Source of the DNA: Clostridiales bacterium
Lineage (GTDB): Bacteria; Bacillota; Clostridia; Lachnospirales; Lachnospiraceae
Length of the DNA: 64,000 bases
Reading direction: 5' to 3'
NCBI GenBank assembly: GCA_012839295.1
Contig: DUNO01000019.1
Span: forward strand, 52,682-116,681
Shown here one piece after another: positions 4,091 to 22,042 of this stretch (the first letter of the stretch is position 1; each line of letters begins with the position of its first letter). A program made the translations under genes and the position numbers. The notes under the pieces are model-generated. The model was not told where the DNA came from. It was given only the letters and a program-made list of their open reading frames with translations, and ran no database searches.

Positions 4091-5137
4091 TTATTTTTGG
4101 TATTTTTTTCGATAATCTGCTGGAGTCATACCAACATTGTTTCTGAAAACCTTATAAAAGAATCCTTTATTATGATATCCAACGGACTCCATAATATCAT
4201 CTATACTTACATTACTTTTTGTCAAAAGCGACTTTGCAATATTTACACGGATAGCTATTAAGTAATCAGAATATGACATACCGGTAAATCGATGTATCAG
4301 TTTGTTAAAGTAGTTGCTTTGATAGTGGAATTGTGTAGTCAGATCTTTCATCTGAATATCCGCAAAATTTGCCTTCATATAAGAATCTACTTCCTGGAAT
4401 AAATAGGCATCGAATTTTTTATGAGTATCTTTATTAAAGGTATAGGAATAGCTGTTTACCATATAATCAAGAAGGCGAACTAAATATCCCTTAATCATAT
4501 AAAGGTTGCCAACCTTTTTTGATTTACATTCCATAAGGATATCAGAGATATATTGGCACACAGTAGCATTCTCGTTGGTATCTGCAGATGGTGTAAATTT
4601 TAAAAATTTTTGAAGGGTATGTTCTTGCTGAAGACAGTGACGTAAGAAACCCTGAAGAGAGTTTTCGGGTACACTTGACAGCAGGACCTCGTCAAAAAGC
4701 TTATTATTAATGCAGATATTTATAACAACTGCATTGGACTGTGACATTACTTCTCTATGGTATGAAGTGGGATGAATCATATATAATTCATTTTCATTAA
4801 AAGTATAAAACTGGTGGTCGAGTTCTATCATAAGACTACCCTGAAGGATATAGGTAATTTGAATATAGTCATTATAGTGAAAGGGTATTTCTGAATCTTT
4901 AAGCATTATATGGTATTCCGGGGAAGAAGAGATAATATAAGCTTTCATATATTCAGAATGGCGATATTCCTGAATGCCAATTTGCAGTTCGGTATCAAGG
5001 ACATGATAGAGTAATTGCCCCTGGCGATTTTCTGAATGTATACCCCACGTGTATTTGTCATTTGTAAGCTCTTTATAAGTCGTGGAAAGATATTCTTTAT
5101 TGTATTCATTATTTTGTATCTCTTGAAAGAAACTCAT
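4091..5137 (-). CDS. AraC/XylS-family transcriptional regulator (cupin-like sensor plus double HTH)
   Basis: HYNDYIQITYILQG cupin-like segment; C-terminal SYSDYLIAIRVNIAKSLL...VGYHNKGFFYKVFRNNVGMTPADYRK. Confidence 0.92.
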   Translation of the reverse strand: MSFFQEIQNNEYNKEYLSTTYKELTNDKYTWGIHSENRQGQLLYHVLDTELQIGIQEYRHSEYMKAYIISSSPEYHIMLKDSEIPFHYNDYIQITYILQGSLMIELDHQFYTFNENELYMIHPTSYHREVMSQSNAVVINICINNKLFDEVLLSSVPENSLQGFLRHCLQQEHTLQKFLKFTPSADTNENATVCQYISDILMECKSKKVGNLYMIKGYLVRLLDYMVNSYSYTFNKDTHKKFDAYLFQEVDSYMKANFADIQMKDLTTQFHYQSNYFNKLIHRFTGMSYSDYLIAIRVNIAKSLLTKSNVSIDDIMESVGYHNKGFFYKVFRNNVGMTPADYRKKYQK

Positions 5138-5156
5138 AATTCATAACCCTTTCTTG

Positions 5157-5963
5157 TTAATAATCAACAAATATAATTTCAATACCTGCAGAACGAAGCT
5201 CATTTATAGCATTAAGATCTGCATCTTTATCGGTAACCAAATAGTTTATGTCTTTAATTTCACCGCTGTAAAACTTATGGACAGCTCCTACCTTTGTGCT
5301 ATCAGCAACAACAAATACAGAGCCTTGACAACGCTCCATCATTGCATGGTTAATGATTGTCTCATTTAAGATGGAGGTGGTAATGCCGCCATGGACACTG
5401 ATGCCAGAAACACCAATAATACACTTGCTACATTTAATATGCTTTATAGTATCAAGGCAAAATTGACCTGTGATAGAGCTTTTGTTTTTGTTCAATTCGC
5501 CGCCGGTTAATATTAGAGAGATATCCGGATTTCTAGGTTCAAGAACACTGTTACCGTTGTTGGTGATAATAGTTACGTTAAAAGCCGAGATATATCGGAT
5601 TATTCTGCTGGCTGTACTGCTGGAATTAAGAAATATGGTATCGCCTGATTCGACGAATCTAGCCATCTTACGAGCTATAGCATTCTTTTTCATTTCAGGT
5701 TGGGACAATGAGATATTACGATTATGGAGAATAGGAGGGATATTATCTTTTCTGTCCGATATCTCCGCACCTCCAAAGTATCTTCTCAGATGGCCTTCTT
5801 GCTCCAGATATTCTAAATCACGCCTAATGGTGGTAAGTGAGACATTTAAAAGCTTTGATAATTCAGTAACGCTGCAGCTTCTATTATGTATTACTTTTTG
5901 TAAAATTCGCTCTCTTCTCATTATAATTTCAGTTTCAGCTGTTTTCATATTGGCATTCTCCAT
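5157..5963 (-). CDS. DeoR/GlpR-family transcriptional regulator (paralog 1)
   Basis: HTH VSLTTIRRDLEYLEQEG..RRYFGGA; DeoRC domain DTIFLNSSST, LTGGE, VVADSTK. Confidence 0.92.
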   Translation of the reverse strand: MENANMKTAETEIIMRRERILQKVIHNRSCSVTELSKLLNVSLTTIRRDLEYLEQEGHLRRYFGGAEISDRKDNIPPILHNRNISLSQPEMKKNAIARKMARFVESGDTIFLNSSSTASRIIRYISAFNVTIITNNGNSVLEPRNPDISLILTGGELNKNKSSITGQFCLDTIKHIKCSKCIIGVSGISVHGGITTSILNETIINHAMMERCQGSVFVVADSTKVGAVHKFYSGEIKDINYLVTDKDADLNAINELRSAGIEIIFVDY

Positions 5964-6225
5964 TTTAAGTCAACGCAGTCAAATGATTTATATACTATTT
6001 ATAAGCTGATTCTATAGAATAATCATAAAACAGTCAATATAATTACGTTTATAGGATTGGAAAGGTAACTTTTATATAAAAAACAAATGAAATAGAGTAC
6101 ATATGCGAAGAATATAAATAATACAGAGATCAGCAGTGAAAACCAGATGATGACTAAGGCGGTAATGAAAACTTTTGCTTTTATAATAAATGATCATATT
6201 GCGAGCATAAAAAACTAAAAAGCCC

Positions 6226-6246
6226 TAAAAAGAACGATAAGGTAAC
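6226..6246 (+). promoter_or_regulatory. 21-bp box TAAAAAGAACGATAAGGTAAC upstream of the solute-binding protein gene (probable regulator site)
   Basis: Exact copy at 9057-9077, in the equivalent position of the second DeoR intergenic region. Confidence 0.55.
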
Positions 6247-6350
6247 AGTATGAACTTAGCTGGATTGATTACGTAATAGTAAAATAAAATATACACTGAT
6301 ACAATAATCATATCTTAAATAAGAGAAATAATTTAACTGGGAGGAAAAGA

Positions 6351-7889
6351 ATGAAGAAAAAAATTATTAGTATCTTACTGATGGCATCTATGGGACTGAT
6401 GTTAATGACTGGATGTTCAAACAATACGAGCAAGACAGAGGCTGATAATGCAGGTAAAACAGAAACTGGGAATTCGGGTGAAATGAAAGCGACGACAGCA
6501 CCGGCAGAGGAAGACATACCAAATATTGTTGTGGGCTTCTCTTACTTGGAAGTACCTACAGATTTAGCGAAAGTAGAGGCGGCAATTAATGAAATTACAA
6601 AAGAAAAGATCGGTTGTACCGTGACACTGAACGCTTACACTTACGGAACGGTTTCCCAACAAACACAGTTGGCTTTATCAACTCCAACGGAACAATTGGA
6701 TGCTTTAATGACAAGACTTTATGGAGTTGGTATTGGTGGCTTTGTATCAAAAGGCCAATTAAATCCACTGGATGACCTTTTGGAGCAGTATGGACAAGGT
6801 ATCGTAGATGCAGTTGGCTCTGATGTCTTGGATTCTAACAGGGTTAATGGAACGCTATATAGCATCACGCCGACTGGGGAAGGGGCTTCGCAATATTGTT
6901 TAATGGTTCGTAAAGACATTTTGGATGCAGTTGGATATGGTGATGTTACACAGGTTAATGATTATTCTGAACTTACTGATGTTTTTGATGCAATTAAAAA
7001 AACATACCCTGATTTGTATACAGTGGCTTCAGGTGCGGTGCAATCGCCATATACAATCAATTTACCTTTGAATATAGATCGCCTAGGTGATAAATTGGGT
7101 GTATTAGAAGATATCAATGAACCGACGGTTAGTAATTACTATAGATCTGACGCGTACAAGCAGATCTGCAAACTGGGCCGTGAATGGAATGAAGCAGGCT
7201 ATGTATATCCAGACATTCTTACAGATACCAGTAATTCAGGTGTTGCTCTAATGAAGCAAGGGCTCATGGCATCTTATTTTACGGTATATAAACCGGGAGC
7301 TGAATCAGAAGCTAAGGTTAGCACTGGTCATGAGGTTACAGCTATTAAGATTGGAGATGCACAAGCTATCGCGGGTCTTTCATGGCAGTGGACGATCCCT
7401 ACGAACTCTGTATATCCTGATAAAGCAATGCAATTCCTTAACCTGCTCTATACAGATGCCGACTTAGTTAATTTGATAAGCTTTGGTATTGAAGGAGACC
7501 ATTATAAGCTGGATGAAAATGGACAGGTAGTTTCCAGTGATAATACAGCGGGTTATGCTGATCAGAAACAATGGGAAACTGGAAATTATTTTCTGGCTCA
7601 CACTTTTGCAACACAGCCGATTGATTTGCATGATCAGATGAAAGCATGGAATGCTTCTGCAAAGAAGTCGATAGCTTGTGGCTTTTCATTTGATTCTACT
7701 GAAGTGTCGGCAGAATATACTGCAATTCAGTCGGTTATATCAGAATATGACACAGCGCTTCAATGGGGATTTGTTAAGGACATAGATTCTAAAATTGAGG
7801 AATTTAATAAAGCTCTACATGATGCGGGTTTACAGAAATATATGGATGCTAAGCAACAAGCCCTGAATGAATGGCTGGAAGCAAAATAG
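6351..7889 (+). CDS. Sugar ABC transporter substrate-binding lipoprotein
   Basis: RBS GGAGG; lipobox LMTGC; NTPTNSVYPDKAMQFLNLLY-type segment (WTIPTNSVYPDKAMQFLNLLY) and C-terminal GLQKYMDAKQQALNEWL typical of LplA/DUF3502-type binding proteins. Confidence 0.9.
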   Translation: MKKKIISILLMASMGLMLMTGCSNNTSKTEADNAGKTETGNSGEMKATTAPAEEDIPNIVVGFSYLEVPTDLAKVEAAINEITKEKIGCTVTLNAYTYGTVSQQTQLALSTPTEQLDALMTRLYGVGIGGFVSKGQLNPLDDLLEQYGQGIVDAVGSDVLDSNRVNGTLYSITPTGEGASQYCLMVRKDILDAVGYGDVTQVNDYSELTDVFDAIKKTYPDLYTVASGAVQSPYTINLPLNIDRLGDKLGVLEDINEPTVSNYYRSDAYKQICKLGREWNEAGYVYPDILTDTSNSGVALMKQGLMASYFTVYKPGAESEAKVSTGHEVTAIKIGDAQAIAGLSWQWTIPTNSVYPDKAMQFLNLLYTDADLVNLISFGIEGDHYKLDENGQVVSSDNTAGYADQKQWETGNYFLAHTFATQPIDLHDQMKAWNASAKKSIACGFSFDSTEVSAEYTAIQSVISEYDTALQWGFVKDIDSKIEEFNKALHDAGLQKYMDAKQQALNEWLEAK

Positions 7890-7913
7890 AATGAAATATT
7901 AGAATAGTGATAT

Positions 7914-7963
7914 GGGGACGTTACTAAATAGCGAATTATGCTACGAAGTGATGTCCCCTTTTT
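7914..7963 (+). terminator. Probable intrinsic terminator after the binding-protein gene
   Basis: GGGGACGTTAC...GTGATGTCCCC stem followed by TTTTT. Confidence 0.55.
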
Positions 7964-8015
7964 ATGAAAAAGAATGTATTACGATTTTAAATATATTGTT
8001 TAACAATGTATTTTG

Positions 8016-8810
8016 TTAATAATTTACTAAAACAGTTTGAATACCATAGGATTGAAGTTGTGAGATAACGGCAGAATCAGCATCGGTATCTGTAATCAGG
8101 TGCGTGATTTCCGAAATTTCACCACTGTAGAATTTATGGACAGCACCTATTTTAGAGCTGTCAGCCACAACGTAGACAGGTCCCTTGCAGCGTTTTATCA
8201 TAGCGTGATTTATGGTGGTTTCATTTAAAACTGCGGTAGTTATTCCGTTTTTTATGCTGATGCCTGATACACCAATAATACATTTATCGCAAGTGACCTT
8301 TTCAATGGTTTCTAAAGAGTATTGTCCTGTGAGGGAGCTTTTATTTGGATTAACCTCCCCACCGGTAAGTATTAAAGTAATACAGGGATCTTTAGGTATA
8401 AATATGCTTTTGCAATTATTGGTTATGACAGTAACGCTTTTATTTTTGATATAGGAATAAATATTGCATGCTGTTGAGCTGGAATTAATAAAAATAGTGT
8501 CACTGTCGGTGATTAATTCGGCCATTTTTCTCGCGATTGCCTCTTTTTTTCTAAGCTCTATTTCCGAATGTGTTCCACTTCCTGTGGGGAGCTGTCCGGG
8601 CATAATATCAGAGACCATTTTTAGTTTAGCACCACCATGATATCTTATTAAAACGCCTTGTTTTTCAAGATGAGCTAAATCGCGCCTTATAGTTATACCT
8701 GATGTTTTAAGTTCCTCTGTCAGCTGAGTGACACTACAGCTGTTATTTTTTTTAATTAGCTCTACTATTTTGTTGCGTCTGGAACGAATGTCGTCTAAGG
8801 CTGTACGCAT
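8016..8810 (-). CDS. DeoR/GlpR-family transcriptional regulator (paralog 2)
   Basis: HTH SGITIRRDLAHLEKQG..RYHGGA. Shares long blocks with paralog 1 (AIARKMA, KCIIGVSGIS, INHAM, GAVHKFYSGEI). Confidence 0.92.
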   Translation of the reverse strand: MRTALDDIRSRRNKIVELIKKNNSCSVTQLTEELKTSGITIRRDLAHLEKQGVLIRYHGGAKLKMVSDIMPGQLPTGSGTHSEIELRKKEAIARKMAELITDSDTIFINSSSTACNIYSYIKNKSVTVITNNCKSIFIPKDPCITLILTGGEVNPNKSSLTGQYSLETIEKVTCDKCIIGVSGISIKNGITTAVLNETTINHAMIKRCKGPVYVVADSSKIGAVHKFYSGEISEITHLITDTDADSAVISQLQSYGIQTVLVNY

Positions 8811-9077: not shown

Positions 9078-9178
9078 TATTTAGATATATAAATGGGGTG
9101 ATTAAGTAATAGATAAGAAACGGATATATTGATATGATAATATCAAACTTAAGAACATCAGTAAGTAGGAGGGAAAGT

Positions 9179-10105
9179 ATGTTAAACAGGATTAGGGTCA
9201 ATAAAAAGGGGATTTATAAGTACAGATGGTTGTATGTTATGATGATACCCAGTTTGATTTATATGATCATTAATAATTATGTTCCAATGGCAGGCTTGGT
9301 TATGGCATTCAAAAAGATTAATTTCTCAGTTGGGATATGGAAAAGTCCATGGGCAGGATTTGATAATTTTAGATATTTGTTTGCAACATCTGATGCATGG
9401 ATCATTACAAGAAATACGATCAGTTATAATCTGGCCTTTATTGTGCTGGGTAATACATTAGCCGTTTTAACGGCAATGGCACTGGCGGAAGTAAAGAGTA
9501 AAAAAGGGAGAGCGTTCTTTCAGGGATCTATTTTAATACCATATATAATCTCTTACGTTGTTGTTAGTTATCTAGTATATGCATTTTTAAGTACTAATGG
9601 TTTTTTTAATAAAACATTGCTTCCGCTGTTGGGCTTAGAGCCTACCAATTGGTATTTAGAAACCATATATTGGCCGTTTATACTGGTGATTGTATTTCTT
9701 TGGAAAGGTATTGGATACAGTAGTGTTATCTATCTTTCCTCCATTCTTGGAATTGATGGAAGCTTGTATGAAGCGGCAGCGCTTGATGGTGCAAATGCCT
9801 TCCAAAGAGCGAAATTGATAACAATTCCGTTGTTAAAGCCAACCATTATCACTTTGGTTATGCTTCAGATAGGAAGAATTTTTTATTCAGACTTTGGCTT
9901 ATTCTATCAGGTTCCCCAAAACTCAGGACAACTCCTCAAAGCCACTAATGTTATTGATACATATGTTTATCGTGGTTTATTGCAACTGGGAGATGTGAGT
10001 ATGTCGGCAGCTGCAGGATTTTATCAGGCAATTGTAGGTTTTGTGATTGTATTGGGAGCCAACCTTTTAGTTAAAAAATTTAGCCCAGATGATGCGCTAT
10101 TCTAG
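9179..10105 (+). CDS. Sugar ABC transporter permease (LplB-like)
   Basis: Start chosen at ATG 9179 after AGGAGGG. EAA loop SLYEAAALDGA; FYSDFGLFY; NVIDTYVYR. Confidence 0.92.
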   Translation: MLNRIRVNKKGIYKYRWLYVMMIPSLIYMIINNYVPMAGLVMAFKKINFSVGIWKSPWAGFDNFRYLFATSDAWIITRNTISYNLAFIVLGNTLAVLTAMALAEVKSKKGRAFFQGSILIPYIISYVVVSYLVYAFLSTNGFFNKTLLPLLGLEPTNWYLETIYWPFILVIVFLWKGIGYSSVIYLSSILGIDGSLYEAAALDGANAFQRAKLITIPLLKPTIITLVMLQIGRIFYSDFGLFYQVPQNSGQLLKATNVIDTYVYRGLLQLGDVSMSAAAGFYQAIVGFVIVLGANLLVKKFSPDDALF

Positions 10106-10116
10106 GAGAAGAGAAG

Positions 10117-10995
10117 ATGAAAGAAAAATTAAACTTATATCAAATACTCAGAACAATACTCTTGGCTTTATTATCGGCCTTTGCTATCTTGCCATTTGCT
10201 TTATTATTTATTGCCTCTTTAACAAAGGAATCTTTCATTATGCAAAACGGATATAGTTATTTTCCGAAGGAATGGAGTTTTTCGGCTTATGAATACTTAA
10301 TCGCAAATGGGGCGCAGATTTTTAGGGCTTATGGGATTTCCATTATAATTACGGTCGCAGGAACTTGTTTGGGACTTGCTCTAACTTTATTATTTGCATA
10401 TCCGTTATCTAAGCCGGACATGCCTGGAAGACGCTTTTTTAACTTTATGGTATTTTTCACGATTCTGTTTAGCGGAGGCCTAGTCCCCAGCTATACCATG
10501 TGGACTACTGTATTCCATATGAAGAATAGTATATTGGCATTGCTGATACCTGGATTGCTGATGAGAGGATTTTATGTAATACTTGCAAAATCCTATTTTC
10601 AGGCTTCAATACCTGGGGAGATTTATGAGTCAGCGAGAATTGATGGAGCAAGTGAGGTCACCGTATTTTCCAGGATTGCAATTCCGCTGGCAAAACCAAT
10701 TATTGCTACGCTGGTGCTGTTTATAGGATTGGATTATTGGAATGACTGGAATAACGGCTTGATTTATTTGACTAATGCTAAGCTATATAGCATCCAGAAT
10801 GTCCTGAACCAGATGATACAGACGATTACTTTCTTATCCCAGAATGCAGGGCAGGTAAGTGTCACTGGGAATATCCCCAGCAATGCTGTCCGGATGGCAA
10901 TTGCTGTAGTCGGAACTTTACCTGTGCTGATTGCATATCCTTTTCTTCAGAAATGGTTTGTAAAAGGCATCGTAATGGGCGGTGTTAAAGGGTGA
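10117..10995 (+). CDS. Sugar ABC transporter permease (LplC-like)
   Basis: FSGGLVPSY; EAA loop EIYESARIDGASE; DYWNDW; ends GGVKG. Confidence 0.92.
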   Translation: MKEKLNLYQILRTILLALLSAFAILPFALLFIASLTKESFIMQNGYSYFPKEWSFSAYEYLIANGAQIFRAYGISIIITVAGTCLGLALTLLFAYPLSKPDMPGRRFFNFMVFFTILFSGGLVPSYTMWTTVFHMKNSILALLIPGLLMRGFYVILAKSYFQASIPGEIYESARIDGASEVTVFSRIAIPLAKPIIATLVLFIGLDYWNDWNNGLIYLTNAKLYSIQNVLNQMIQTITFLSQNAGQVSVTGNIPSNAVRMAIAVVGTLPVLIAYPFLQKWFVKGIVMGGVKG

Positions 10996-11056
10996 TTGGC
11001 TAATTAAGAAGCAGGAAACCTGATGCTAGACAATTATAATAGGAGGAAATTTTATC

Positions 11057-12739
11057 ATGATAGATTTAAAGGGTAACCCGTTTTTTTTGGATGCAGAGCA
11101 GGAAAAATGGGTGAAGGATACGTTGGAGACATTATCCACGGATGAAAAGATAGGTCAGTTGTTTTGCGAAACCCTATGGAACTGCACTCAAGAGGAGGCA
11201 GATGTTGTTTTCAGTACGATAAAACCGGGGGGCGTTATGTTTCGTCCGAATCCGGCAAGAGAAATTCGTAAGTTTACCAAGCAATTGCAGGAAAGATCAA
11301 CAGTGCCTCTTTTGATCGCAGCGAACTTCGAAAGGGGTGGAAACGGGGGAATGACGGATGGAACCTATTACGGTTCCCAGATGCAGGTTGCAGCTGCAAA
11401 TGATGATCTGTGTGGAGAGAGGCTCGGTGTAATTGCGGGCCGTGAAGCACAGGCATTGGGCTTTAACTGGTCATTTGCCCCTATAGTAGACATTGATTAC
11501 AATTACTTGAGTACAGTAACGAATACCAGAACCTTTGGTTCAGACCCCGAAAAGATTATCAGATTATCAAAAGGATACATAAGAGGTGCGCAGGGGAGCA
11601 ACATAGCCGCAACGATTAAGCATTTCCCGGGGGATGGAATGGATATTCGGGATCAGCATAAAATTGCTACGATAAATACGAAGGCGGTTGAGGATTGGGA
11701 CGCAACCTATGGAAAGGTATACCGTGAGTTAATTGAAGCTGGTGCAGATTCTGTCATGATAGGCCATATCAAGTTGCCTGCGTACAGTCATTTGCTGGAG
11801 CCTGAAACCGCCGATAAGGATATCCTTCCTGCCTCCCTGAACCCTGTGTTAATTAATAAATTACTGAGGGAAGAGTTAGGTTTTAATGGGCTGACAGTAT
11901 CTGATGATACCCATATGGCAGGCTTTATGAATTCGTTGAAACGAAAAGATGCTGTGCCGCAATGCATTGCGGCGGGCTGTGACATGTTTTTGTTTACAAT
12001 CAATCATAAAGAAGATGTGGAATACATGAGAGCCGGTGTTCGTGAGGGGGTAATTACCCAGGAACGTTTGGATGAAGCAGTAACTAGAATTTTGGCGTTA
12101 AAGGCAAAATTACGTCTTTATGAGATGGATAATTCAGAACGGGCAGAATTCGGCGAAGAGATTGTGGGATGTGAAGAACATAAGCTTTGGGCACAAGAAT
12201 GTGCGGATAAGGCAGTAACTCTAGTGAAAGATGTTGACCATTTACTGCCGATCACTCCTGAAAAGTATAAACGGATTTTGATTTATGGTTTTATGGGAGA
12301 AAAGGCCGGACGCTATGATAATCATCCTCAATATGAAAAATTTAAAATGGATCTCACCCATGAAGGGTTTGAAATAACAGAAATAAACCTGGATGAAATG
12401 CCGGGGCTGGGCAAGATGGGTGTCGGCATCGAAGATTTGGGGAAAAAATATGATATAATGATCTATTTTGTAGGAGCCCATTCTGGATACCGGATTAACT
12501 GGGAGTCCATTGTCTGTGGGGAGATTGCAAGTTATACGAAAGAGATTCCTACGATGGCGATATCCTTTGCAAGTCCATATATGCTGATTGATTTGGCTAT
12601 GGTAAGTACTTATATCAATGCATACAGTGAATCAGATTTTACAAGAAAAGCAGTCATAGAAAAAATGATGGGAAAAAGTGAATTTAAGGGGGTGAATCCG
12701 GTAGATCCATTCTGTGGGATGTGGGATTTGCCGTTATAA
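11057..12739 (+). CDS. Glycoside hydrolase family 3 (beta-glucosidase / beta-N-acetylhexosaminidase, His acid-base type)
   Basis: EKIGQLF; FAPIVDI; NTRTFG; KHFPGDG..IRDQH; nucleophile segment VSDDTHM; AGCDMFL. Confidence 0.92.
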   Translation: MIDLKGNPFFLDAEQEKWVKDTLETLSTDEKIGQLFCETLWNCTQEEADVVFSTIKPGGVMFRPNPAREIRKFTKQLQERSTVPLLIAANFERGGNGGMTDGTYYGSQMQVAAANDDLCGERLGVIAGREAQALGFNWSFAPIVDIDYNYLSTVTNTRTFGSDPEKIIRLSKGYIRGAQGSNIAATIKHFPGDGMDIRDQHKIATINTKAVEDWDATYGKVYRELIEAGADSVMIGHIKLPAYSHLLEPETADKDILPASLNPVLINKLLREELGFNGLTVSDDTHMAGFMNSLKRKDAVPQCIAAGCDMFLFTINHKEDVEYMRAGVREGVITQERLDEAVTRILALKAKLRLYEMDNSERAEFGEEIVGCEEHKLWAQECADKAVTLVKDVDHLLPITPEKYKRILIYGFMGEKAGRYDNHPQYEKFKMDLTHEGFEITEINLDEMPGLGKMGVGIEDLGKKYDIMIYFVGAHSGYRINWESIVCGEIASYTKEIPTMAISFASPYMLIDLAMVSTYINAYSESDFTRKAVIEKMMGKSEFKGVNPVDPFCGMWDLPL

Positions 12740-12742
12740 AAG

Positions 12743-13456
12743 ATGAAAATAACAGATAATATTTACCAAATAAGCGGACTTGCATTTGGAACAAATTCAA
12801 ATGCATATGTCATAGATGCAGGAGAGGAACTTATTTTGATAGATGCAGGATTTTCTGACTATCAGTGGGAGGTTATGCAAAAATCGATAAAGTTCTGGGG
12901 CTTAGAGAAAAAGCCAATTACACATACCTTTATAACTCATTGCCATTTTGATCATGCCGGTAATACCTGGCTGGCAAAGGAGGCCGGTTCAAGGATTTAT
13001 GCTGGGGATTCCGATGCACAGGGGATAGAGACAGGTGATATAAGAACGATAGGCCATATGTTTGGAAGGGAATTTAAGCCCTGTAAAGTGGACCACATCT
13101 TAAAGGACGGAGAAGTATTTCAAATAGGAAACAAGGAAATCAGGGCATTATATATGCCTGGACACAGTGTAGGTTCATATATGTTCCAAGTAGACGACAA
13201 TGGACGTAATTGCTTGTTCTTGGGGGATTTCGTTGCTTTGAACCCGGATGGAGCAGAGGATGATGTCATTGTATTGTTATCCTGGACCGGCGGGCCTGAC
13301 TATGACAGAGAATCCTATGTTAATTCATTGAAAAGGGCAGTAGGCTTTGAACCAGTTATCATGCTGCCGGGACATTGGGCATGCTTTTATGGTGATAGCC
13401 AGACAATATTTAAAAGGGCTTATCAGCTTGGTCTGGAATTAAAAGATGAAGGATGA
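12743..13456 (+). CDS. Metallo-beta-lactamase-fold hydrolase
   Basis: LIDAG; THCHFDHAG (HxHxDH); PGHSVG; FLGD; PGHW. Confidence 0.88.
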   Translation: MKITDNIYQISGLAFGTNSNAYVIDAGEELILIDAGFSDYQWEVMQKSIKFWGLEKKPITHTFITHCHFDHAGNTWLAKEAGSRIYAGDSDAQGIETGDIRTIGHMFGREFKPCKVDHILKDGEVFQIGNKEIRALYMPGHSVGSYMFQVDDNGRNCLFLGDFVALNPDGAEDDVIVLLSWTGGPDYDRESYVNSLKRAVGFEPVIMLPGHWACFYGDSQTIFKRAYQLGLELKDEG

Positions 13457-13462
13457 TTGTAA

Positions 13463-14926
13463 ATGGAAGCAAGGAAATCAGTAGTATTAGTGTTTGATGT
13501 GGGAAGCTCCGGCATGAAAGGTTTTTTGTACAACAAGAATGGGATATGTATTGGAAAGAGTCAATACTTATACTCAATGAAGATTGATGGGCAGGCTGCT
13601 ACACAAAAGGCTGAGGATTTTGAAAATGGCGTACAGAATAATAGCAGAAACCTTCTAAAATATGCAAAAGAGGCAGGCTGTTCTATAGAAGCTATTGTTT
13701 TTACTTCTCAGAGATCTTCTCTGGTCTGCCTGAGTGAAAAAGGCCATGTCCTCACTGATTTCATAATGTGGTATGACAAACGTTCACAGGATATTTGCAA
13801 TACCAGGAAAGAAACCCTTAAAGATAGTCATTATCAGATATGTGGAATAGATCCCTCTCCGATATTATTGGCACCTAAGATTACATGGGTGAAAGAAAAT
13901 ATGAAAGATGTTGCCAAGAAAACTGTTAAATATGTCAGTATTCAGGATTTCTTGATTTACCGTGCAACAGGAAAATTTGTAACGGATCCCACATTGGCCT
14001 GTAGGACAGGACTTATGGAGATCCACACAATGTATTGGTCAGAAGAAATGCTGGATTGTTATGGCATACATAAAAAAGAATTATGTGACATAATCCCTAC
14101 TGGCAGCATAGCAGGGAAAGTGACCAGGGAGTTTTCCGGAATGACAGGATTACCGGAAGGAATTCCTGTAATAACGGCGGGGGGAGACCAGCAGTGTTCC
14201 GTTCATGGACAGGGGATTGATGAATCTGCAATCGGGGTAACTTTAGGAAGCGGCGGATATGCAGTGGGTATTTCCAGTACTCTGGCTTTGGCCGCAGAGG
14301 ATAAAATAGATGTATGTGCTTCATCCGTTAGCGGTTGGTGGAATCTTGAAAAAAGTATTCCATCAGTCGGAACATCCTATGACTGGTGTCGCAGAAATTT
14401 TTACGGAGAAGAATGCATACAGGAGGAGTTCAACAAGAAATTGGAATTGTCGGAACCGGGTGCCGGAGGTGTAATTGCTTATACGGATTTTACGAAAAGG
14501 GATAAATCAGGGGGTAGCAAAGCACTAATGAATATAGGGCTTTCAACCAGCAGAGAGGATATGGCCAGGGCTTTTGTAGAGAGCGTTGTTGACGATATGG
14601 CAGAAAGCTGTCTCCTTCTCAAAAAGAGGCTTGTAAAAATAAACAAAGTTCTGGTCACAGGAGGGATGTCAAAGTCCGATCTGATCAACCAGATGCTGGC
14701 AGATATGCTGGACATTCCTGTAATAAAGAATCGAATAGATGAAGCAACAGCTGACGGAGCATGGCTTTTGGCAGCAAAAGAATTAGGTATGTATTCGGTT
14801 GGGATAGAAAATGACCGGCGCAAGGCCTTACAGGAAAAAGAATATATTCCTAATAAGTTCTGCGTTGAAAGATATGCAGTGAACAGACTGGAGCGGAGAA
14901 AAATTTTTGAAAAGGAGAGTATGTGA
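13463..14926 (+). CDS. FGGY-family carbohydrate kinase (xylulokinase / LyxK-like; substrate unknown)
   Basis: [10 protein letters not shown]; WYDKRS; GGDQQC; [17 protein letters not shown]. Confidence 0.88.
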
Positions 14927-14927
14927 A

Positions 14928-16031
14928 ATGAGTAAAATAAGTGAGACAACAAGGGAAAATTGGATTATGGGCACATTTCCGGAATGGGGGACATGGCTTA
15001 ACGAAGAAATTGAGGAAGAAGAGGTAACGCCCGGAACGATAGCTATGTGGTGGCTTGGTTGCACGGGGATTTGGTTAAAAACTCCCGGAGCAGCGAATAT
15101 CAGCATTGACCTGTGGTGTGGAAACGGAAAGCGTTCTCATGGTAATGGGAAAATGCAGGTCGGCCATCAGATGGCGAATATGTGTGGGGCAAGAGCCATG
15201 CAGCCAAATTTGAGGGCAGTTCCCTTTGTCATCGACCCTTTTGCAGTAAAGCATGTTGATGCAGTACTGGCTACACACTACCACCAGGATCATATGAGCT
15301 CAGAATTTGCAGCTCATGTAATCCAAAGTGGCATTACAACAACAGATGAAAAGAGGAAGAAAATTCCAGTTCCCTTCATTGGACCAAAAAAGTCGGTTGA
15401 AACGTGGATAAAATGGGGAGTTCCCGAGGAGAGATGTATTACCGTTAAGCCGGGTGATTCAATTAAGATAAAAGATATTGAAATCATTGCACTGGATTCC
15501 TTTGACAGAACCTGCCTTGTAACTACCGATTCTCAAGGAGCCGACCGGGAGGAGCTGACAGGGATATGTCCTATGGATATGGATGATAAGGCGGTGAATT
15601 ACCTGATAAAAACTCCGGGCGGAAACATCTATCATAGCGGTGATTCCCATTACTCCATTTACTTTGCAAAGCATGGAAAGGATTATGAGGTTGATGTTGC
15701 ATTTGCTTCCTACGGAGAAAACCCGGTTGGCATGGCAGACAAAATGACATCCTGTGATGTACTCCGGATGGCAGAGGCACTCCGCACAAACGTTGTAATT
15801 CCAATTCATTATGACGTATGGACTAACTTCATGGCAGACGTCAATGAAATCAAAGTACTTTATGATATGAAAAAAGATCGTCTTGATTATCAGTTCCATC
15901 CGTTTTTCTGGGAAGTAGGAGGTAAGTACATTTATCCTACCGACAAAGAGAAGAAAGCATATCATCACAGGAGAGGGTTTGAAGACTGCTTCGAGGCACC
16001 ACAGAACATACCATTCCGTTCATTATTGTAA
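14928..16031 (+). CDS. ulaG: L-ascorbate 6-phosphate lactonase
   Basis: N-terminus [35 protein letters not shown]; [13 protein letters not shown]; THYHQDHM; YHSGDSHYS; IPIHYDVW, all characteristic of UlaG. Confidence 0.93.
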
Positions 16032-16059
16032 AATGCACCATAGTTGAGGATAGTGGAAA

Positions 16060-16905
16060 ATGAAGAAATATACATTGGGATTATATGAAAAGGCAATGCC
16101 GAACGAATTATCCTGGAAAGACAAGCTGGCAGCGGCTAAGCAGGCAGGATTTGACTTTATAGAAATAAGCATTGATGAGACAGATGAGAAGCTGTCAAGG
16201 CTGGATATGTCACAAGCAGAGCGCATGCTACTGCTCAATACCTGCCTGGTAATGGAAATGCCGATCAGATCCATGTGTTTAAGCGGTCATAGAAGATTTC
16301 CCCTTGGAAGCACGGATCCGTCAATTGAAGCAAAGGGAATGGAAATTATGGAGAAGGCCATACAATTGGCTGATGATCTTGGAATAAGGGTGATCCAGTT
16401 AGCGGGGTATGATGTTTATTATGAAGAGGGAAATAAAAAGACCAGAGAAAGGTTTGCGAGGAATCTGGCTGAAGCGGTTAATATGGCTTCAGCCAGAGCT
16501 ATAGTAATGGGATTTGAAACAATGGAAACGGAGTTCATGAATACTGTCGGGAAGGCAATGGAATATGTAAAGGGAGACAACTCCCCCTATTTAATGGTCT
16601 ATCCGGATATTGGAAACATAACAAATGCGGCAAAAACGTATAAAACAGATGTGATGGAAGATTTAAAGACGGGAAAAGGACACATTATAGCCATGCATTT
16701 AAAAGAAACTATTCCAGGGGTATTTCGGGAAGTACCCTTTGGAGCTGGTCATGTTGATTTCCAGTCGGCAATTAAGACAGCATGGGAGTTGGGAGTAAGA
16801 AAGTACGTAACGGAGTTCTGGTATACGGGCAGTCCAGAGTGGAAAGAAGAGCTGAAGGCCGCTAATAGAATTATGAGTGCAATGCTTGATGCTCAATCTG
16901 CCTGA
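16060..16905 (+). CDS. ulaE: L-xylulose-5-phosphate 3-epimerase (UlaE/SgbU family)
   Basis: LGLYEKAMP; FIEISIDETDEKLSRLD; SMCLSGHRRFPLGS; IQLAGYDVYYE; YPDIGN; MHLKET. Confidence 0.92.
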   Translation: MKKYTLGLYEKAMPNELSWKDKLAAAKQAGFDFIEISIDETDEKLSRLDMSQAERMLLLNTCLVMEMPIRSMCLSGHRRFPLGSTDPSIEAKGMEIMEKAIQLADDLGIRVIQLAGYDVYYEEGNKKTRERFARNLAEAVNMASARAIVMGFETMETEFMNTVGKAMEYVKGDNSPYLMVYPDIGNITNAAKTYKTDVMEDLKTGKGHIIAMHLKETIPGVFREVPFGAGHVDFQSAIKTAWELGVRKYVTEFWYTGSPEWKEELKAANRIMSAMLDAQSA

Positions 16906-16935
16906 GATTCAAACAGAAAGGGTTAGTGATTAATT

Positions 16936-18078
16936 ATGAGTAGATGGCTTTTAGGAACCTGGAATGGTCAATTAATATACCATGATGAAACGGATGAGCT
17001 TAAGAAGCAGGTGACTCAACTGACAAAGGGGCAGGATATTGCCTATATGGAGTTGGATTATGAAAAAATGCTCTTGTTTGTATTGTTGAATAATAAAGAT
17101 AGCGTGACAGGTAATGGAGGTAGCATTTTAACATATCAGATAAATGGAGACGGACAGGGAATTACTTTCCTCAACGAAATGGGTTCCTTTGGCGCTTATC
17201 CGATTGAAATTAAATTGGAGGATAGCTATGCTGTTGTTGTTAATCATGGAAGCACGAAGGATTTTGGACTGAAGACAGTACGTGATAATAAGGGCAAAAT
17301 ACAGGTCGAAAAAATTTATGAAGAATCAAGTATCGTACTTTTTGGAAGAAAAAAGGATGGAACCTTAGGTGAGGCTCTGGATGTTATCAAATTTCAGGGA
17401 AGTGGGGAAATCCCATTCTTTCAGGAAGCCCCTTCACCGCATTCCCTATACTATTTACATAGTAAGAAAGAGTTTTATGTTCCTGAAAGAGGTACGGACA
17501 GAGTAAGTGTATTTCAAATTAATGAGCAGGATAGACATTTAAAAAAAATAGGGATCATGAAGAGTAAAAAGGGATATGGTCCCAGAAACATTACTTTTCA
17601 TCCTTCTGGAAAATGGGCTTATCTTATGCACGAAATTGAATCATATGTCTTTGTATATGAAAGGGCGGAGAAGCCCGACGGAAGGGTTCGTTTTAAAAAG
17701 ATACAGGAAATAAAGACAGTGACAGAAGAAGTGGCAGGAGCCTTTACTATGCCCCAGCATTCCTTTGCGGCACTGCATCCAGTGGATCTGGCTGCTTCTG
17801 ATAAAGGTCAGTATTTGTATGTGCTGACAAGAAGCAGTAACACCTTGACAACTTTTCATATAAACCAGAAAACAGGAAGAATAAAAATTGCAGACTGCAG
17901 TTCAATCGGAGGGATAAACCCTAGACAGATATCAGTCGTTGGTGAAGAAATTTATATTATTACCCTGGATGATGGGAGCATGGTTAAATGGGAGCATAGG
18001 GAAGGGAATATGTGCCCGGAAAGAAAAGAGGTTATCATAGAGGGGATACCTAAATTAGCTGTTGGAAGAAAAATGTAA
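16936..18078 (+). CDS. Lactonase, 7-bladed beta-propeller (6-phosphogluconolactonase Pgl/YbhE-like)
   Basis: PSPHS; GYGPRNITFHPSGKWAYLMHE; GINPRQ; no signal peptide visible. Confidence 0.78.
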   Translation: MSRWLLGTWNGQLIYHDETDELKKQVTQLTKGQDIAYMELDYEKMLLFVLLNNKDSVTGNGGSILTYQINGDGQGITFLNEMGSFGAYPIEIKLEDSYAVVVNHGSTKDFGLKTVRDNKGKIQVEKIYEESSIVLFGRKKDGTLGEALDVIKFQGSGEIPFFQEAPSPHSLYYLHSKKEFYVPERGTDRVSVFQINEQDRHLKKIGIMKSKKGYGPRNITFHPSGKWAYLMHEIESYVFVYERAEKPDGRVRFKKIQEIKTVTEEVAGAFTMPQHSFAALHPVDLAASDKGQYLYVLTRSSNTLTTFHINQKTGRIKIADCSSIGGINPRQISVVGEEIYIITLDDGSMVKWEHREGNMCPERKEVIIEGIPKLAVGRKM

Positions 18079-18121
18079 TGAAGAACAACAATGACGTGCA
18101 AAGAGGAAAGCAGGAGGGGTT

Positions 18122-19180
18122 ATGTTTACTAAAAAAGTAATTAAAGAATTGGAAAACTGCTATTCAATAGCACCATTAACATATCGGGGAAAAAACTGTA
18201 TCTTAGTTGCAGCTGAGAAGCATGCTCCGTGTTACTTGTTCACAGATGATGGAGAATTGATTGATACGGTCTGGGAGGAACCAGGCGGTGTCATGACGAT
18301 GGTACAGCTACCCGGTAAGGACGGGGAGTTTCTGGCGACACATCAGTTCTATTCACCAAATGATTCTAAAGAGGCTAAGATTGTATATGTCAGGCATGAT
18401 GATAAAAAAGGATGGGTAGTTACAGAGCTGGTAAAGCTTCCATTTATCCATAGGTTTGATATCATCACAAGAAATGGCGTGAATTATCTGCTGGCATGTG
18501 CCTTGAAATCAGGATATGAATATAAAGAAGATTGGAGATTTCCAGGGCAAACCTTTACTGCAATTTTACCGGAGGATCTCTCCCAATTTCATGAAGGGAA
18601 TAACCTCCGGTTAACATTGATTAAGGATAAGATGCTTAGGAACCATGGGTATACCAGATATTTTGACAATGGAATACAGACAGGCATCATCTCGTGTGAT
18701 AACGGTGTTTATCAGTTTATACCCCCTGTTTGTAAAACAAGTGATTGGCAGGTGAAAGAGCTAATTAATGAACCCACCAGTGATGCGCTGTTGGGAGATT
18801 TCGACGGGGATGGAAATGACGAATTATTTGTTATAACTCCATTTCATGGGAATTTTGTAAAGCTTTATAAAAGGGTGGGCGGCAGCTTTAAAGAGATTTA
18901 CCAAATCCCTCTGGAACTGGAAATGCTGCATGCAATATATCAGGGAACTATTCATGGACGGCATACGATTATTTTTGGCCACAGAAAAGGAAACTGTGAT
19001 TTACTGCAGTTCTATTATGACCATAAAGAAGGTGGCTATAAATATGAAGTAATCGACCATGGCCGTGGCCCAGCTAATGTATATATGTACCATGCCGGTG
19101 GACAGGATAAGATAGTCGCTACAAATAGAGAAACAAATGAAATAGCCATCTATACCTACTGCAAGGAAGATGGAAAATAG
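18122..19180 (+). CDS. Uncharacterised protein, probable beta-propeller with one FG-GAP-like loop
   Basis: RBS AGGAGGGG; beta-strand-rich sequence; GDFDGDGNDE motif; His-rich (PFIHRF, RNHG, PFHG, MLHA, GHR). Confidence 0.7.
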   Translation: MFTKKVIKELENCYSIAPLTYRGKNCILVAAEKHAPCYLFTDDGELIDTVWEEPGGVMTMVQLPGKDGEFLATHQFYSPNDSKEAKIVYVRHDDKKGWVVTELVKLPFIHRFDIITRNGVNYLLACALKSGYEYKEDWRFPGQTFTAILPEDLSQFHEGNNLRLTLIKDKMLRNHGYTRYFDNGIQTGIISCDNGVYQFIPPVCKTSDWQVKELINEPTSDALLGDFDGDGNDELFVITPFHGNFVKLYKRVGGSFKEIYQIPLELEMLHAIYQGTIHGRHTIIFGHRKGNCDLLQFYYDHKEGGYKYEVIDHGRGPANVYMYHAGGQDKIVATNRETNEIAIYTYCKEDGK

Positions 19181-19205
19181 CCTGGAGAATGAAAGGGGGT
19201 ATATT

Positions 19206-19874
19206 ATGAATGGTGATGAAACCCGTAAAAGAATCTATCAAAAGATAAAAAAATTAGAAGCATACCGTGAAATACAAAACCTCATGGGAAGAACAGTTAT
19301 TGCATATAATTTTAGGCAGAAAGCAGAGTTGGCAGGGTTTTTTAGCAAAGTACAGGCCGATATCTCTATAGAGGTTGCTGATGAAGGTGTTTTCCAAGGC
19401 AAGGAAGCTGTTGAGGCGTATATCAAAGAGTACATTCCCCAAGAAGGTATCCCCGGTGAAATGATGGACATTCATTTGGCATCCCCCATCATTGAGGTAG
19501 CTGATGATGTAAAAACAGCAAAAGCGCAGTGGGTATGTCCTGGAATAGGAGCCCTTCCAAGAGAAAATAACGAACCGTTAGCTATCTGGAATTGGGGGAT
19601 TATTGCTGCTGACTTCACATATGAAGAAGGTGAGTGGAAAATCTGGCATCTACATTGGTTCCGGTTAATGAAGTGTGATTATGATAAGGGCTGGGTAAAA
19701 GATACCAGCATGGAAAACAGATTGAATAAGCCATATCATCCGTTAGCCAAGCCAACGACCTATCATAACCCGTATACACCGTATAGTATTAGGGAGTGTA
19801 TCCCCGCGATTCCAAGGCCTTATGTAACCTGGGACAATAGTGACTGGATGCTTAATAAGAACAGGGTGGATTAA
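19206..19874 (+). CDS. SnoaL-like / NTF2-family protein (paralog 1)
   Basis: LEAYREIQNLMGR; HLASPIIEVADDVKTAKAQW; ADFTYEEGEWKIWHLHW. Confidence 0.82.
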   Translation: MNGDETRKRIYQKIKKLEAYREIQNLMGRTVIAYNFRQKAELAGFFSKVQADISIEVADEGVFQGKEAVEAYIKEYIPQEGIPGEMMDIHLASPIIEVADDVKTAKAQWVCPGIGALPRENNEPLAIWNWGIIAADFTYEEGEWKIWHLHWFRLMKCDYDKGWVKDTSMENRLNKPYHPLAKPTTYHNPYTPYSIRECIPAIPRPYVTWDNSDWMLNKNRVD

Positions 19875-19875
19875 T

Positions 19876-20556
19876 ATGGAGTATGAATTAATGATGGAAG
19901 ATGAGTTAGCGCTGGTGGATTTTACAGAGGGTGAGCTAATTGAGTTAGAGCAGCAGATTGATAAACTTCTAGCAGCTTGGGAGATTCAGAATTTAAGAGG
20001 AACATTGTACCGTTTTCATGATGATCAACACATTGGTGACCAAAGAAGAGAGCTTTACGCTGACCAGCATCCTGGACTTGATTATGAGACTCTTCTTAAA
20101 TCGAGAATGGTAGAATTGGTAGAAAGCTTAGAAGGTAATACGTTAATACACCCGGTCATGACCCCGGTAATTGAAATAGATAAAGAGTGCAAGAAAGCTA
20201 GAGCAGTATTTTCATCATTTGGATATGAAGGCCTTTCGATTCACCGAGAGGCTCCAATGGCAATCTGGAGCATCGGATATATCCCTGGAGTTCATGTTCG
20301 GCAGGATGGTGAATGGCGTGTCTTGAGCGGGGTATGGCAGAGAACTGTAAAGACCCAGATGGAGAAAGGCTGGGTAAGGGATATGCAGAAATCAAACTGT
20401 AAACCTCCTTTGACAGATGAGCAGGACAGGAACTATCTTGGAAAATATGCCTACCATAAAGACACAGCCAGAAAATATGTACCAGTTCCACCGGATAAAA
20501 ATACCTGGAATAAATATCCGGATGAAATGGATGAAAAATGGAAGGAGAAGATATAA
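19876..20556 (+). CDS. Divergent SnoaL-like / NTF2-family protein (paralog 2)
   Basis: WEIQNLRG; HPVMTPVIEID..KARAVF; AIWSIG; QDGEWRV; KGWVRD. These align with paralog 1; start lies 1 nt after its stop. Confidence 0.7.
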   Translation: MEYELMMEDELALVDFTEGELIELEQQIDKLLAAWEIQNLRGTLYRFHDDQHIGDQRRELYADQHPGLDYETLLKSRMVELVESLEGNTLIHPVMTPVIEIDKECKKARAVFSSFGYEGLSIHREAPMAIWSIGYIPGVHVRQDGEWRVLSGVWQRTVKTQMEKGWVRDMQKSNCKPPLTDEQDRNYLGKYAYHKDTARKYVPVPPDKNTWNKYPDEMDEKWKEKI

Positions 20557-20587
20557 AAGTAGGAAATTATATTAGGAGGATACACAT

Positions 20588-21379
20588 ATGGCACTTATAC
20601 AGGTTGATTACTCATCACGCGAATTACGTAGAAATGTGACTTTTAGGGCAGTGATACCAAATGACTACAATATATTCGGTGAAAAGTGTGATAGAACCCG
20701 GCAAAAATTTAGAACGGTATATCTTCTTCATGGATATAAAGGTAATTGTACTGACTGGCTCAATGGATTTCATATCCAGGAATTGGCTGACACTTATAAT
20801 TTTGTTGTTATCATGCCCTCTGGAGAAAACTCGTTTTATATTGATGAACCAGACAAGGGGGAATATTATGGAAGGTTTATAGGTAAAGAGTTAGTAGAAT
20901 ATACTAGGGATTTATTCCCTTTGTCATCAAAAAGAGAAGATACATTTATAGGTGGCTTTTCTATGGGTGGTTATGGAGCAGCAATTAATGGCCTTAAGTA
21001 CTCTGATAACTTTTCAAAAATTATGAGCTTTTCGGGAGGCTTTTTAGTGCTTGATGCAGCTGATGAAAAAGAATATACCAATGTTATGGTGTTAACAACT
21101 GAATATCAAAAGAGAATTTTTGGAGATGTGGACTTACTTAGAAATAGTGATAAGGATCCACGTTTTCTTGTAGAGCAGTTGCAAGCCGAAGGGAGCCAGA
21201 TCCCTGAAATATTCATGACATGTGGAACAGAAGACGGGTTGGTTGGTGTCAATCAAAAACTGAATAGATACCTTGTCAAAAGGGGAATATCGCATAAATA
21301 TATTGAGGATAAGGGAATACATGACAGAGAATTTACAAGACGCTATCTTGAAGAAGCAATTCAATGGATGTTAGAGTAA
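20588..21379 (+). CDS. Alpha/beta-hydrolase esterase (acetyl/tributyrin esterase type)
   Basis: VYLLHG; VIMPSGENSFY; GGFSMGGYGA (GxSxG); CGTEDGL; GIHD. Confidence 0.9.
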   Translation: MALIQVDYSSRELRRNVTFRAVIPNDYNIFGEKCDRTRQKFRTVYLLHGYKGNCTDWLNGFHIQELADTYNFVVIMPSGENSFYIDEPDKGEYYGRFIGKELVEYTRDLFPLSSKREDTFIGGFSMGGYGAAINGLKYSDNFSKIMSFSGGFLVLDAADEKEYTNVMVLTTEYQKRIFGDVDLLRNSDKDPRFLVEQLQAEGSQIPEIFMTCGTEDGLVGVNQKLNRYLVKRGISHKYIEDKGIHDREFTRRYLEEAIQWMLE

Positions 21380-21605: not shown

Positions 21606-21641
21606 CCCGGATTTTATCTTGCTAAAATCCGGGATTTTTTT
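21606..21641 (+). terminator. Intrinsic terminator-like hairpin downstream of the catabolic operon
   Basis: CCCGGATTTTA / TAAAATCCGGG perfect 11-bp stem followed by A and a T7 tract. Confidence 0.65.
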
Positions 21642-22042
21642 GTTATAATTTATCCAGAGAAGATCCGACAATAATGCAACCGAATACGAACTTTCTAAAG
21701 TTCTTCCCTGACGTCGAATTATCAGATAACAGGAACAAGACAATGAGAAGTAGCTGTCTTCATACCGGATCGTTTATAATAATCAAGAAGATCACGGATT
21801 GACCAGAGCATCGGTTTCCTTTAACAGCTGGAATGCCGTCCGGAACCACAGAGAAAAATCCATATTTGTCAAAATGGTTGAGTGGAAAAAATATGAGAAG
21901 TTTGCATATTGATATTTGGATATAATAATAGTATAATCTAAATTAGACTAATCTGAATTATATTAATCTGGATCGTACTGAGTAGGTTTATACCATAATT
22001 ATGTAAATATTCATAAAATCTTTATCAATGAGGAGGCATGTC

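Follow-up and report, generated by a model that had tools for sequence, protein, structure and literature searches.

A ula-type operon without UlaD in a Clostridiales bacterium, and a beta-propeller protein as candidate for the missing step

How does carbon pass from UlaG to UlaE in an operon that encodes both and lacks UlaD, the enzyme that links the product of the first to the substrate of the second? The question is raised by a stretch of 64,000 nucleotides, here called the window, from a Clostridiales bacterium of the family Lachnospiraceae (contig C18 of an 82-contig, 6.36-Mb assembly with a completeness of 97.9%). A sequence-only reading of the window had reported that the L-ascorbate (Ula) pathway genes ulaG and ulaE stand there without ulaD, for the decarboxylase of 3-keto-L-gulonate-6-phosphate, and without ulaF, for L-ribulose-5-phosphate 4-epimerase, and both absences are borne out for the locus and the window. 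It is probable, judging from gene content and a structural model, that the locus is a variant of the L-ascorbate pathway that works without a phosphotransferase system (PTS), and that the UlaD step is carried out by a non-homologous enzyme, for which our candidate is a 352-residue protein that we call X352.

Absence of UlaD and UlaF in the genome and its relatives

The enzymes on either side of the gap are clearly recognised. UlaG, L-ascorbate-6-phosphate lactonase (14928-16031, + strand), scores 617 bits against a cut-off of 306 with the equivalog model NF008688, which predicts lactonase activity, and is 83-88% identical to the UlaG of PTS-type ula operons in 80 other species, mostly Lachnospiraceae and other Clostridia. 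The UlaE/SgbU-type L-xylulose-5-phosphate/L-ribulose-5-phosphate 3-epimerase (16060-16905, +) passes both of its models, NF009689 with 372 against 200 bits and TIGR00542 with 326 against 272 bits. No window protein matched UlaD/SgbH (PF00215, NF009831, NF009832), and a Pfam model search of the window contig found neither a gene of the OMPdecase fold (PF00215) nor one for a class II aldolase/epimerase (PF00596).

The possibility that the missing genes act in trans, also put forward in the sequence-only reading, has to be dropped for UlaD and is supported for UlaF. When the whole genome was searched for the UlaD/SgbH and AraD families, the former gave nothing and the latter one true AraD. The only PF00215 gene in the assembly lies on contig C69 beside dihydroorotase and is PyrF (TIGR02127, 256 bits); HxlA is absent, and PyrF is the sole member of the orotidine 5'-monophosphate decarboxylase (OMPDC) family. 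UlaD thus does not act in trans, and its absence is confirmed for the locus, the window and the assembly. For UlaF the absence is confirmed for the locus and the window only: among the four PF00596 genes found genome-wide are the AraD on contig C57 (NF009003, 408 bits), RhaD, and two FucA/OtnC-like genes below all cut-offs.

The same genome has a second ula locus, of the PTS type, on C57 (C57:72000-91900, L086), with genes for EIIA, EIIC, EIIB, a Cof-type HAD protein, PtsI, HPr, a DeoR regulator and a second UlaG, X352 and UlaE. Its ptsI and HPr are general PTS genes. UlaD is absent here too, and the identities to the window proteins are 67% for UlaG, 37-38% for X352 and 58% for UlaE. The only AraD of the genome is a stand-alone gene about 5.8 kb downstream of the C57 UlaE, separated from it by a gene for a 398-residue protein, a MerR regulator and guaA. 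As there is no other AraD, the UlaF step is available in trans from one shared epimerase, whereas the UlaD step is not; this single enzyme must serve both ula loci and presumably also the arabinose genes on contig C22, where AraA and a ribulokinase-like gene were found.

The UlaD gap is a property of the lineage. The queries were the window's own proteins and, for the OMPDC family, PyrF and five HxlA proteins; they were run against the 20-kb neighbourhoods of UlaG in the 80 species. Not one of the 80 loci contained an OMPDC homolog, while 70 contained a homolog of X352, and the remaining ten end at a contig edge short of the place where X352 would be expected. The other components were UlaE (69 loci), ascorbate-type PTS proteins (65-66), a DeoR regulator of the UlaR type (60) and an AraD-type epimerase (42), and the commonest order was UlaG-EIIA-EIIC-EIIB-DeoR-UlaE-X352-UlaF. 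In two example loci annotated with Pfam, X352 was the sole gene without a role in the pathway.

Two genome censuses, covering the window's own family and its phylum, gave the same picture, with the limitation that genomes so closely connected by descent do not count as independent samples. The family was represented by 151 evenly sampled genomes. UlaG exceeded its cut-off in 15 of them, and 14 of the 15 also had X352 no more than about 12 kb away on the UlaG contig; in the lone exception UlaG lies about 1.3 kb from the contig start. Thirteen of the 15 carry at most one OMPdecase gene. The extra copies that were fetched from the other two (G020 and G143) and from two UlaG-negative genomes score as HxlA (3-hexulose-6-phosphate synthase) and stay below the UlaD cut-offs, and most of them adjoin HxlB, so that they were rejected as hidden UlaD genes. 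Among 301 genomes sampled from the phylum, UlaG exceeded its cut-off in three besides the source genome, all three with X352 within about 5 kb, and the UlaD model NF009832 reached its cut-off in none of the 301. Five X352 carriers from outside the family, checked separately, have one OMPdecase gene over cut-off each. The linkage to UlaG also holds at low identity: an X352 homolog of 31% identity lies within a complete PTS-type ula operon without UlaD, and one of 27% identity adjoins a UlaG-like gene and a transketolase subunit.

The propeller protein X352

X352 (18122-19180, +) is predicted to be a cytoplasmic seven-bladed beta-propeller. It belongs to no Pfam or NCBIfam family, the nearest being FG-GAP with 20.3 bits, under the cut-off of 22.1, and the Pfam scan gave no match to PF00215 and none to PF22301 (AUDH_beta_propeller) at E <= 0.001. 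The proteins like it form a family of about 1,700 members at 90% clustering, or 733 representatives at 50% clustering; where they are named at all they are called "hypothetical protein", and none carries a Pfam domain. A tblastn search of plasmids in PLSDB gave no match. The conservation resembles that of an enzyme: in 80 X352 sequences, reaching down to 26% identity, the residues Y14, G56, H110, G142, H175, H242, G243 and H270 are invariant, and those conserved to at least 90% include E32, R111, D137, N174, R288 and N335.

The AlphaFold2 model (pLDDT 97.1, pTM 0.94) has 28 strands in seven four-stranded blades. Its best match among solved structures is the N-terminal propeller of the fungal enzyme aldos-2-ulose dehydratase/isomerase (AUDH), with a Z of 35.1, an rmsd of 2.8 A over 338 aligned residues and about 12% identity, about 5.6 Z units above the next matches, which are LGI1 (Z 29.5) and the integrins (Z 27). 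X352 also matches Atlas clusters with PF22301, at a TM of 0.87-0.89. The two propellers share FG-GAP-type DxDxDG loops, and there is a weak local alignment of PFHG in X352 to AFHG in AUDH; a search of solved structures with a profile of the X352 alignment gave insignificant matches only (E 0.07-0.3).

Going by the strand topology, the invariant residues lie in a B-C loop or where the innermost strands begin, which would put them at the opening of the central channel, where propellers usually have their active site. AUDH enolises a keto-sugar at a metal site, and in UlaD the enediolate is stabilised by Mg. By analogy, a metal held by histidines in X352 could stabilise the enediolate that arises when 3-keto-L-gulonate-6-phosphate loses CO2. 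X352 is the best candidate for a non-orthologous decarboxylase of 3-keto-L-gulonate-6-phosphate because of the logic of the pathway, the strictness with which it is linked to UlaG, the lack of UlaD and its enzyme-like conservation, and we regard this assignment as probable. The sequence-only reading had suspected a decarboxylase of this kind among the unassigned proteins of the operon; the suspicion was right, it appears, for the 352-residue propeller with its linkage to UlaG, and not for the metallo-beta-lactamase-fold protein, the PF10282 protein or the SnoaL pair described below, all of which are missing from the 80 ula loci.

A paper on the UlaG family from 2011 refers to a hypothetical gene that follows ulaF in Catonella morbi, describing it as uncharacterised and assigning it no role (PMC3219644). 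Our literature search found no paper that names the X352 protein or a substitute for UlaD, and the N-Zinclopedia preprint mentions neither the X352 family nor the pathway.

The FGGY kinase and the feeder genes

The ascorbate PTS, UlaABC, is not found in the window locus, and in its stead there are a solute-binding protein, two permeases and an FGGY kinase (13463-14926, +; PF00370/PF02782). The kinase reaches no FGGY equivalog cut-off, the best being XylB (TIGR01312) with 222 against 380 bits and all others lower. Its best matches are the FGGY kinases of other ula loci (30-40% identity, 228-293 bits), as compared to at most 26% identity and 133 bits for the paralogs of its own genome. In a maximum-likelihood tree the window kinase and ten ula-locus kinases form one group with a support of 100/99, and 11 FGGY paralogs from the window's own genome fall outside it. 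Of the ten loci in which an FGGY match lies no more than 10 kb from UlaG, eight show no PTS genes over the same distance, and there are compact kinase-UlaG-X352 modules without UlaE. A module with the order SorC-FGGY-UlaG-X352-DeoR has beside it an array of six DUF3830 genes and, scattered among them, two DUF1059 genes (L089:6240-9788).

These comparisons suggest that the ula-linked FGGY kinase may be an ATP-dependent L-ascorbate 6-kinase that replaces the UlaABC PTS. As the window has the type of UlaG that is found in the PTS loci, the simplest reading is that kinase and PTS would give the same product, ascorbate-6-phosphate. The literature search found no paper on an ascorbate kinase. A glycoside hydrolase (GH) gene occupies the same place in other kinase-type loci, GH31 in Mediterraneibacter (L025) and GH29 in a metagenome contig (L087), and the combination of ABC importers with varied glycosidases hints, as a conjecture, at glycosylated substrates. 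The Mediterraneibacter locus (L025:1895-13911) is compact, with a solute-binding protein, two permeases, a LysR regulator, a GH31 gene of the alpha-glucosidase type, FGGY kinase, UlaG, UlaE, X352 and UlaF.

In the window, twelve co-directional genes form a single operon on the + strand (9134-21379), with intergenic gaps of at most 62 bases or overlaps. It starts with the two ABC permeases (9134-10995, as 9134-10105 and 10117-10995; PF00528), followed by a GH3 glycoside hydrolase (11057-12739; PF00933, 201 bits; starting MIDLKGNPFF), which presumably releases an aglycone from an imported glycoside, and a 237-residue hydrolase of the metallo-beta-lactamase fold (MBL; 12743-13456; PF00753, 86 bits), which is part of the feeder module described below. 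After the kinase, UlaG and UlaE come a protein of the seven-bladed lactonase family PF10282 (16936-18078, 154 bits), X352, a pair of SnoaL_4/NTF2-like paralogs (19206-20556, about 19206-19874 and 19876-20556; PF13577) and an esterase (20588-21379; PF00756). The kinase stop codon stands one base ahead of the likely UlaG start, the ATG at 14928, which we prefer to the mechanical open reading frame (ORF) start at 14907 and which has the sequence AAAGGAGAG, resembling a ribosome-binding site, upstream. The first SnoaL gene probably starts at 19206 and not at the earlier ORF start in the region 19170-19206, a database protein of 100% identity being 222 residues long, and the second probably at the ATG at 19876, two bases past the stop of the first, the mechanical start in the region 19840-19876 being too early. 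A strong hairpin like that of an intrinsic terminator closes the operon (21606-21633, or 21606-21643 with the T-run, +; an 11-bp stem with 5 GC pairs and a T-rich tail). Upstream, the solute-binding protein of a CUT1-type ABC importer (6351-7889, +; SBP_bac_1 and DUF3502) sits between two DeoR paralogs (5157-5963 and 8016-8810), which together with an AraC-type regulator (4091-5137) make up the regulators on the minus strand (4091-8810).

None of the 80 ula loci has a homolog of the MBL, the PF10282 protein, the SnoaL pair or the esterase, and the esterase was not found in the loci that share the SnoaL pair either. The pair is a recurrent two-gene module that occurs with a kinase and a lactonase-type hydrolase in five loci (L114-L118). 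The MBL accompanies it in L114 and L116, a distant PF10282 relative lies beside it in L117, and three of these loci (L114, L115 and L117) have no ula core at all. Another genome has such a locus in L114 (L114:2529-12419), where GH3, solute-binding protein, permeases, MBL, FGGY kinase, SnoaL pair and AraC follow in the order of the window at 44-78% identity (64% for the syntenic solute-binding protein, 75-78% for the permeases, 48% for AraC), and where UlaG, UlaE, the PF10282 gene, X352 and the esterase are lacking. Of these five genes, the first four stand together in the window, after the kinase and before the SnoaL pair, and the esterase comes after the pair. The synteny with a locus without the ula core implies that the window operon is a mosaic: a feeder module for glycoside import has received a ula core between its kinase and its SnoaL pair.

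Two further loci with the SnoaL pair contain genes of the pathway. Ruminiclostridium sufflavum (L116) has a kinase, the pair, an SDR protein, MBL, an ABC importer, UlaG (601 bits), X352 (51% identity) and UlaE. In Amycolatopsis balhimycina (L118:1800-11236) the pair stands with a PfkB kinase resembling KDG kinase, a cyclase-family hydrolase, an Opp-type ABC importer, a UlaD-like OMPdecase protein (220 bits with NF009832 as compared to 137 with HxlA), a UlaE-type epimerase and a ribulose-5-phosphate 4-epimerase, and neither UlaG nor X352 is found in the 18.7-kb locus. The set has the look of a feeder route, not described so far, into the lower pathway of 3-keto-L-gulonate-6-phosphate. The presence of the pair beside a UlaD-like gene suggests that it feeds the lower pathway and is not its decarboxylase. 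A feeder that is paired with UlaD in an actinomycete is thus paired with X352 in Clostridia, which gives a small, independent hint that UlaD and X352 may be interchangeable.

Taken together, the genes allow a route to be proposed, every step of which we infer, the catalytic roles of X352 and the kinase among them. A glycoside would be taken up by the ABC importer and its aglycone freed by the GH3 enzyme. The FGGY kinase would then make the 6-phosphate, elsewhere the job of the UlaABC PTS, and UlaG would open the lactone to 3-keto-L-gulonate-6-phosphate. X352 would decarboxylate this to L-xylulose-5-phosphate, probably by means of a metal that invariant histidines hold at the mouth of the propeller and that stabilises the enediolate. 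UlaE would convert L-xylulose-5-phosphate to L-ribulose-5-phosphate, and the genome's single AraD, encoded on the other contig, would convert the latter to D-xylulose-5-phosphate.

Alternatives, significance and known systems

Several points weigh against this route. The case for X352 combines guilt by association with a predicted fold, the nearest solved relative is, at its low identity, a dehydratase/isomerase and not a decarboxylase, and the clustering of the histidines at one site is read from the strand topology of the model. We know of no beta-propeller decarboxylase, and beta-keto acids can lose CO2 slowly without any enzyme. Three genomes of the family carry X352 homologs of 28-32% identity without UlaG, and distant relatives occur in other contexts, with mannose-type PTS and SIS genes. 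In one such locus (L097:695-6228) a homolog of 29% identity lies beside a mannose-type PTS and two SIS-domain genes with no ula genes, which suggests that the propeller family may have more than one function. The assembly is not complete (97.9%), and the five further unassigned enzymes in the operon may mean that the substrate is not ascorbate itself.

It is conceivable, though unlikely, that UlaG, UlaE and X352 handle some other phospho-lactone or keto-sugar phosphate, with X352 as an AUDH-like dehydratase or isomerase, in which case there is no UlaD step to fill. The closest solved fold is that of a dehydratase/isomerase, the additional lactonase-type, NTF2-like and esterase genes suggest an unusual substrate, and the substrate of UlaG family members may shift below about 80% identity (PMC3219644). 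The UlaG of the window, however, reaches twice the equivalog cut-off, and besides X352 most related loci hold only UlaG, UlaE, an AraD-type epimerase and an ascorbate-type EIIC (PF03611), which is the canonical pathway minus one step; moreover, UlaE and AraD need pentulose phosphates, so that one carbon must be lost. Carbon might instead enter below the gap, and the sequence-only reading had considered L-xylulose and the FGGY kinase as the point of entry. This is disfavoured by the way in which the kinase gene abuts UlaG, by the modules of kinase, UlaG and X352 without UlaE, and by the kinase clade taking the place of the ascorbate PTS, which supplies ascorbate-6-phosphate, the substrate of UlaG. 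A kinase acting on 3-keto-L-gulonate in the manner of LyxK would still need a decarboxylase, and the gap would stay. E. coli LyxK is itself an FGGY enzyme, the best equivalog of the window kinase is a xylulokinase, though under the cut-off, and the Amycolatopsis locus, with its PfkB kinase beside UlaD, UlaE and an epimerase and without UlaG, indicates that open-chain phosphorylation routes exist; even so we think it improbable that UlaG and X352 stand off the main flux.

That another protein of the operon is the decarboxylase we hold to be very improbable. NTF2-like enzymes do perform enolate chemistry, and the SnoaL pair, the 237-residue MBL and the PF10282 propeller share the operon with UlaG and UlaE, but the 80 ula loci that equally lack UlaD do without any of them. 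All of these, and the esterase, were rejected as UlaD analogues for that reason, the SnoaL pair also for its occurrence with a UlaD-like gene in Amycolatopsis and in loci without a ula core. We give least credence to a classical UlaD/SgbH in an unassembled part of the genome, or to a promiscuous OMPDC-family enzyme active in trans. An assembly in 82 contigs and short of completeness leaves some room for the former, and HPS and KGPDC are homologous enzymes with reported cross-activity. But HxlA is also missing from the genome, which has PyrF only, and the same absence recurs in about 20 X352-bearing genomes, some of them assembled as 1 or 3 contigs.

Replacement of UlaD by X352 therefore remains our preferred explanation. 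Should X352 prove to be the decarboxylase, a large proportion of gut Clostridia would run a textbook pathway with an enzyme that has gone unrecognised and has an unrelated structure, decarboxylation would join the known chemistry of beta-propellers, and annotation pipelines that require UlaD would class X352 carriers as non-users of vitamin C. An ascorbate kinase activity would be a further addition, contributed by the kinase-type loci, which also point to a microbial use of ascorbate glycosides; this bears on the availability of vitamin C in the gut. A much broader proposal, which we put forward tentatively and in the expectation that some part of it may well fail, is that X352 represents a new family of metal-dependent beta-propeller decarboxylases that replaces UlaD throughout Clostridia, that the FGGY kinases linked to ula are the first L-ascorbate 6-kinases to depend on ATP, and that these two, with ABC importers and cytoplasmic glycosidases (GH3, GH31, GH29), let gut anaerobes ferment glycosylated vitamin C without a PTS. 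Specific to the window are a kinase in place of the PTS, an operon that is a mosaic, and a genome in which two ula loci share one AraD.

The window locus resembles the Ula system of E. coli (ulaG, ulaR, ulaABCDEF) in its UlaG and UlaE orthologs, its DeoR-type regulators and its predicted end product, D-xylulose-5-phosphate formed by an AraD-type epimerase. It differs in having no UlaD, no UlaF in cis and no UlaABC PTS, and in having an ABC importer, GH3, an FGGY kinase, five extra unassigned enzymes and the unrelated propeller. In another respect it is closer to the yiaK-S system of E. coli with LyxK, SgbH, SgbU and SgbE, where uptake also depends on a binding protein and an FGGY kinase is followed by decarboxylation and two epimerisations; yiaK-S, however, has a TRAP transporter, a 2,3-diketogulonate reductase, the OMPDC-fold SgbH and no lactonase, whereas the window has UlaG and X352 and no SgbH.

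X352 itself would share with UlaD/SgbH the reaction, the place in the pathway and probably a metal-assisted enediolate chemistry, although the one is a seven-bladed beta-propeller and the other a (beta/alpha)8 barrel. Its best structural match, AUDH (PDB 4a7k, 4a7y and 4a7z; PF22301), likewise acts on a keto-sugar, and the entries describe a metal in the active site. AUDH is a fungal multidomain enzyme of 900 residues that dehydrates 1,5-anhydro-D-fructose, whereas X352 is a stand-alone bacterial protein of about 350 residues.

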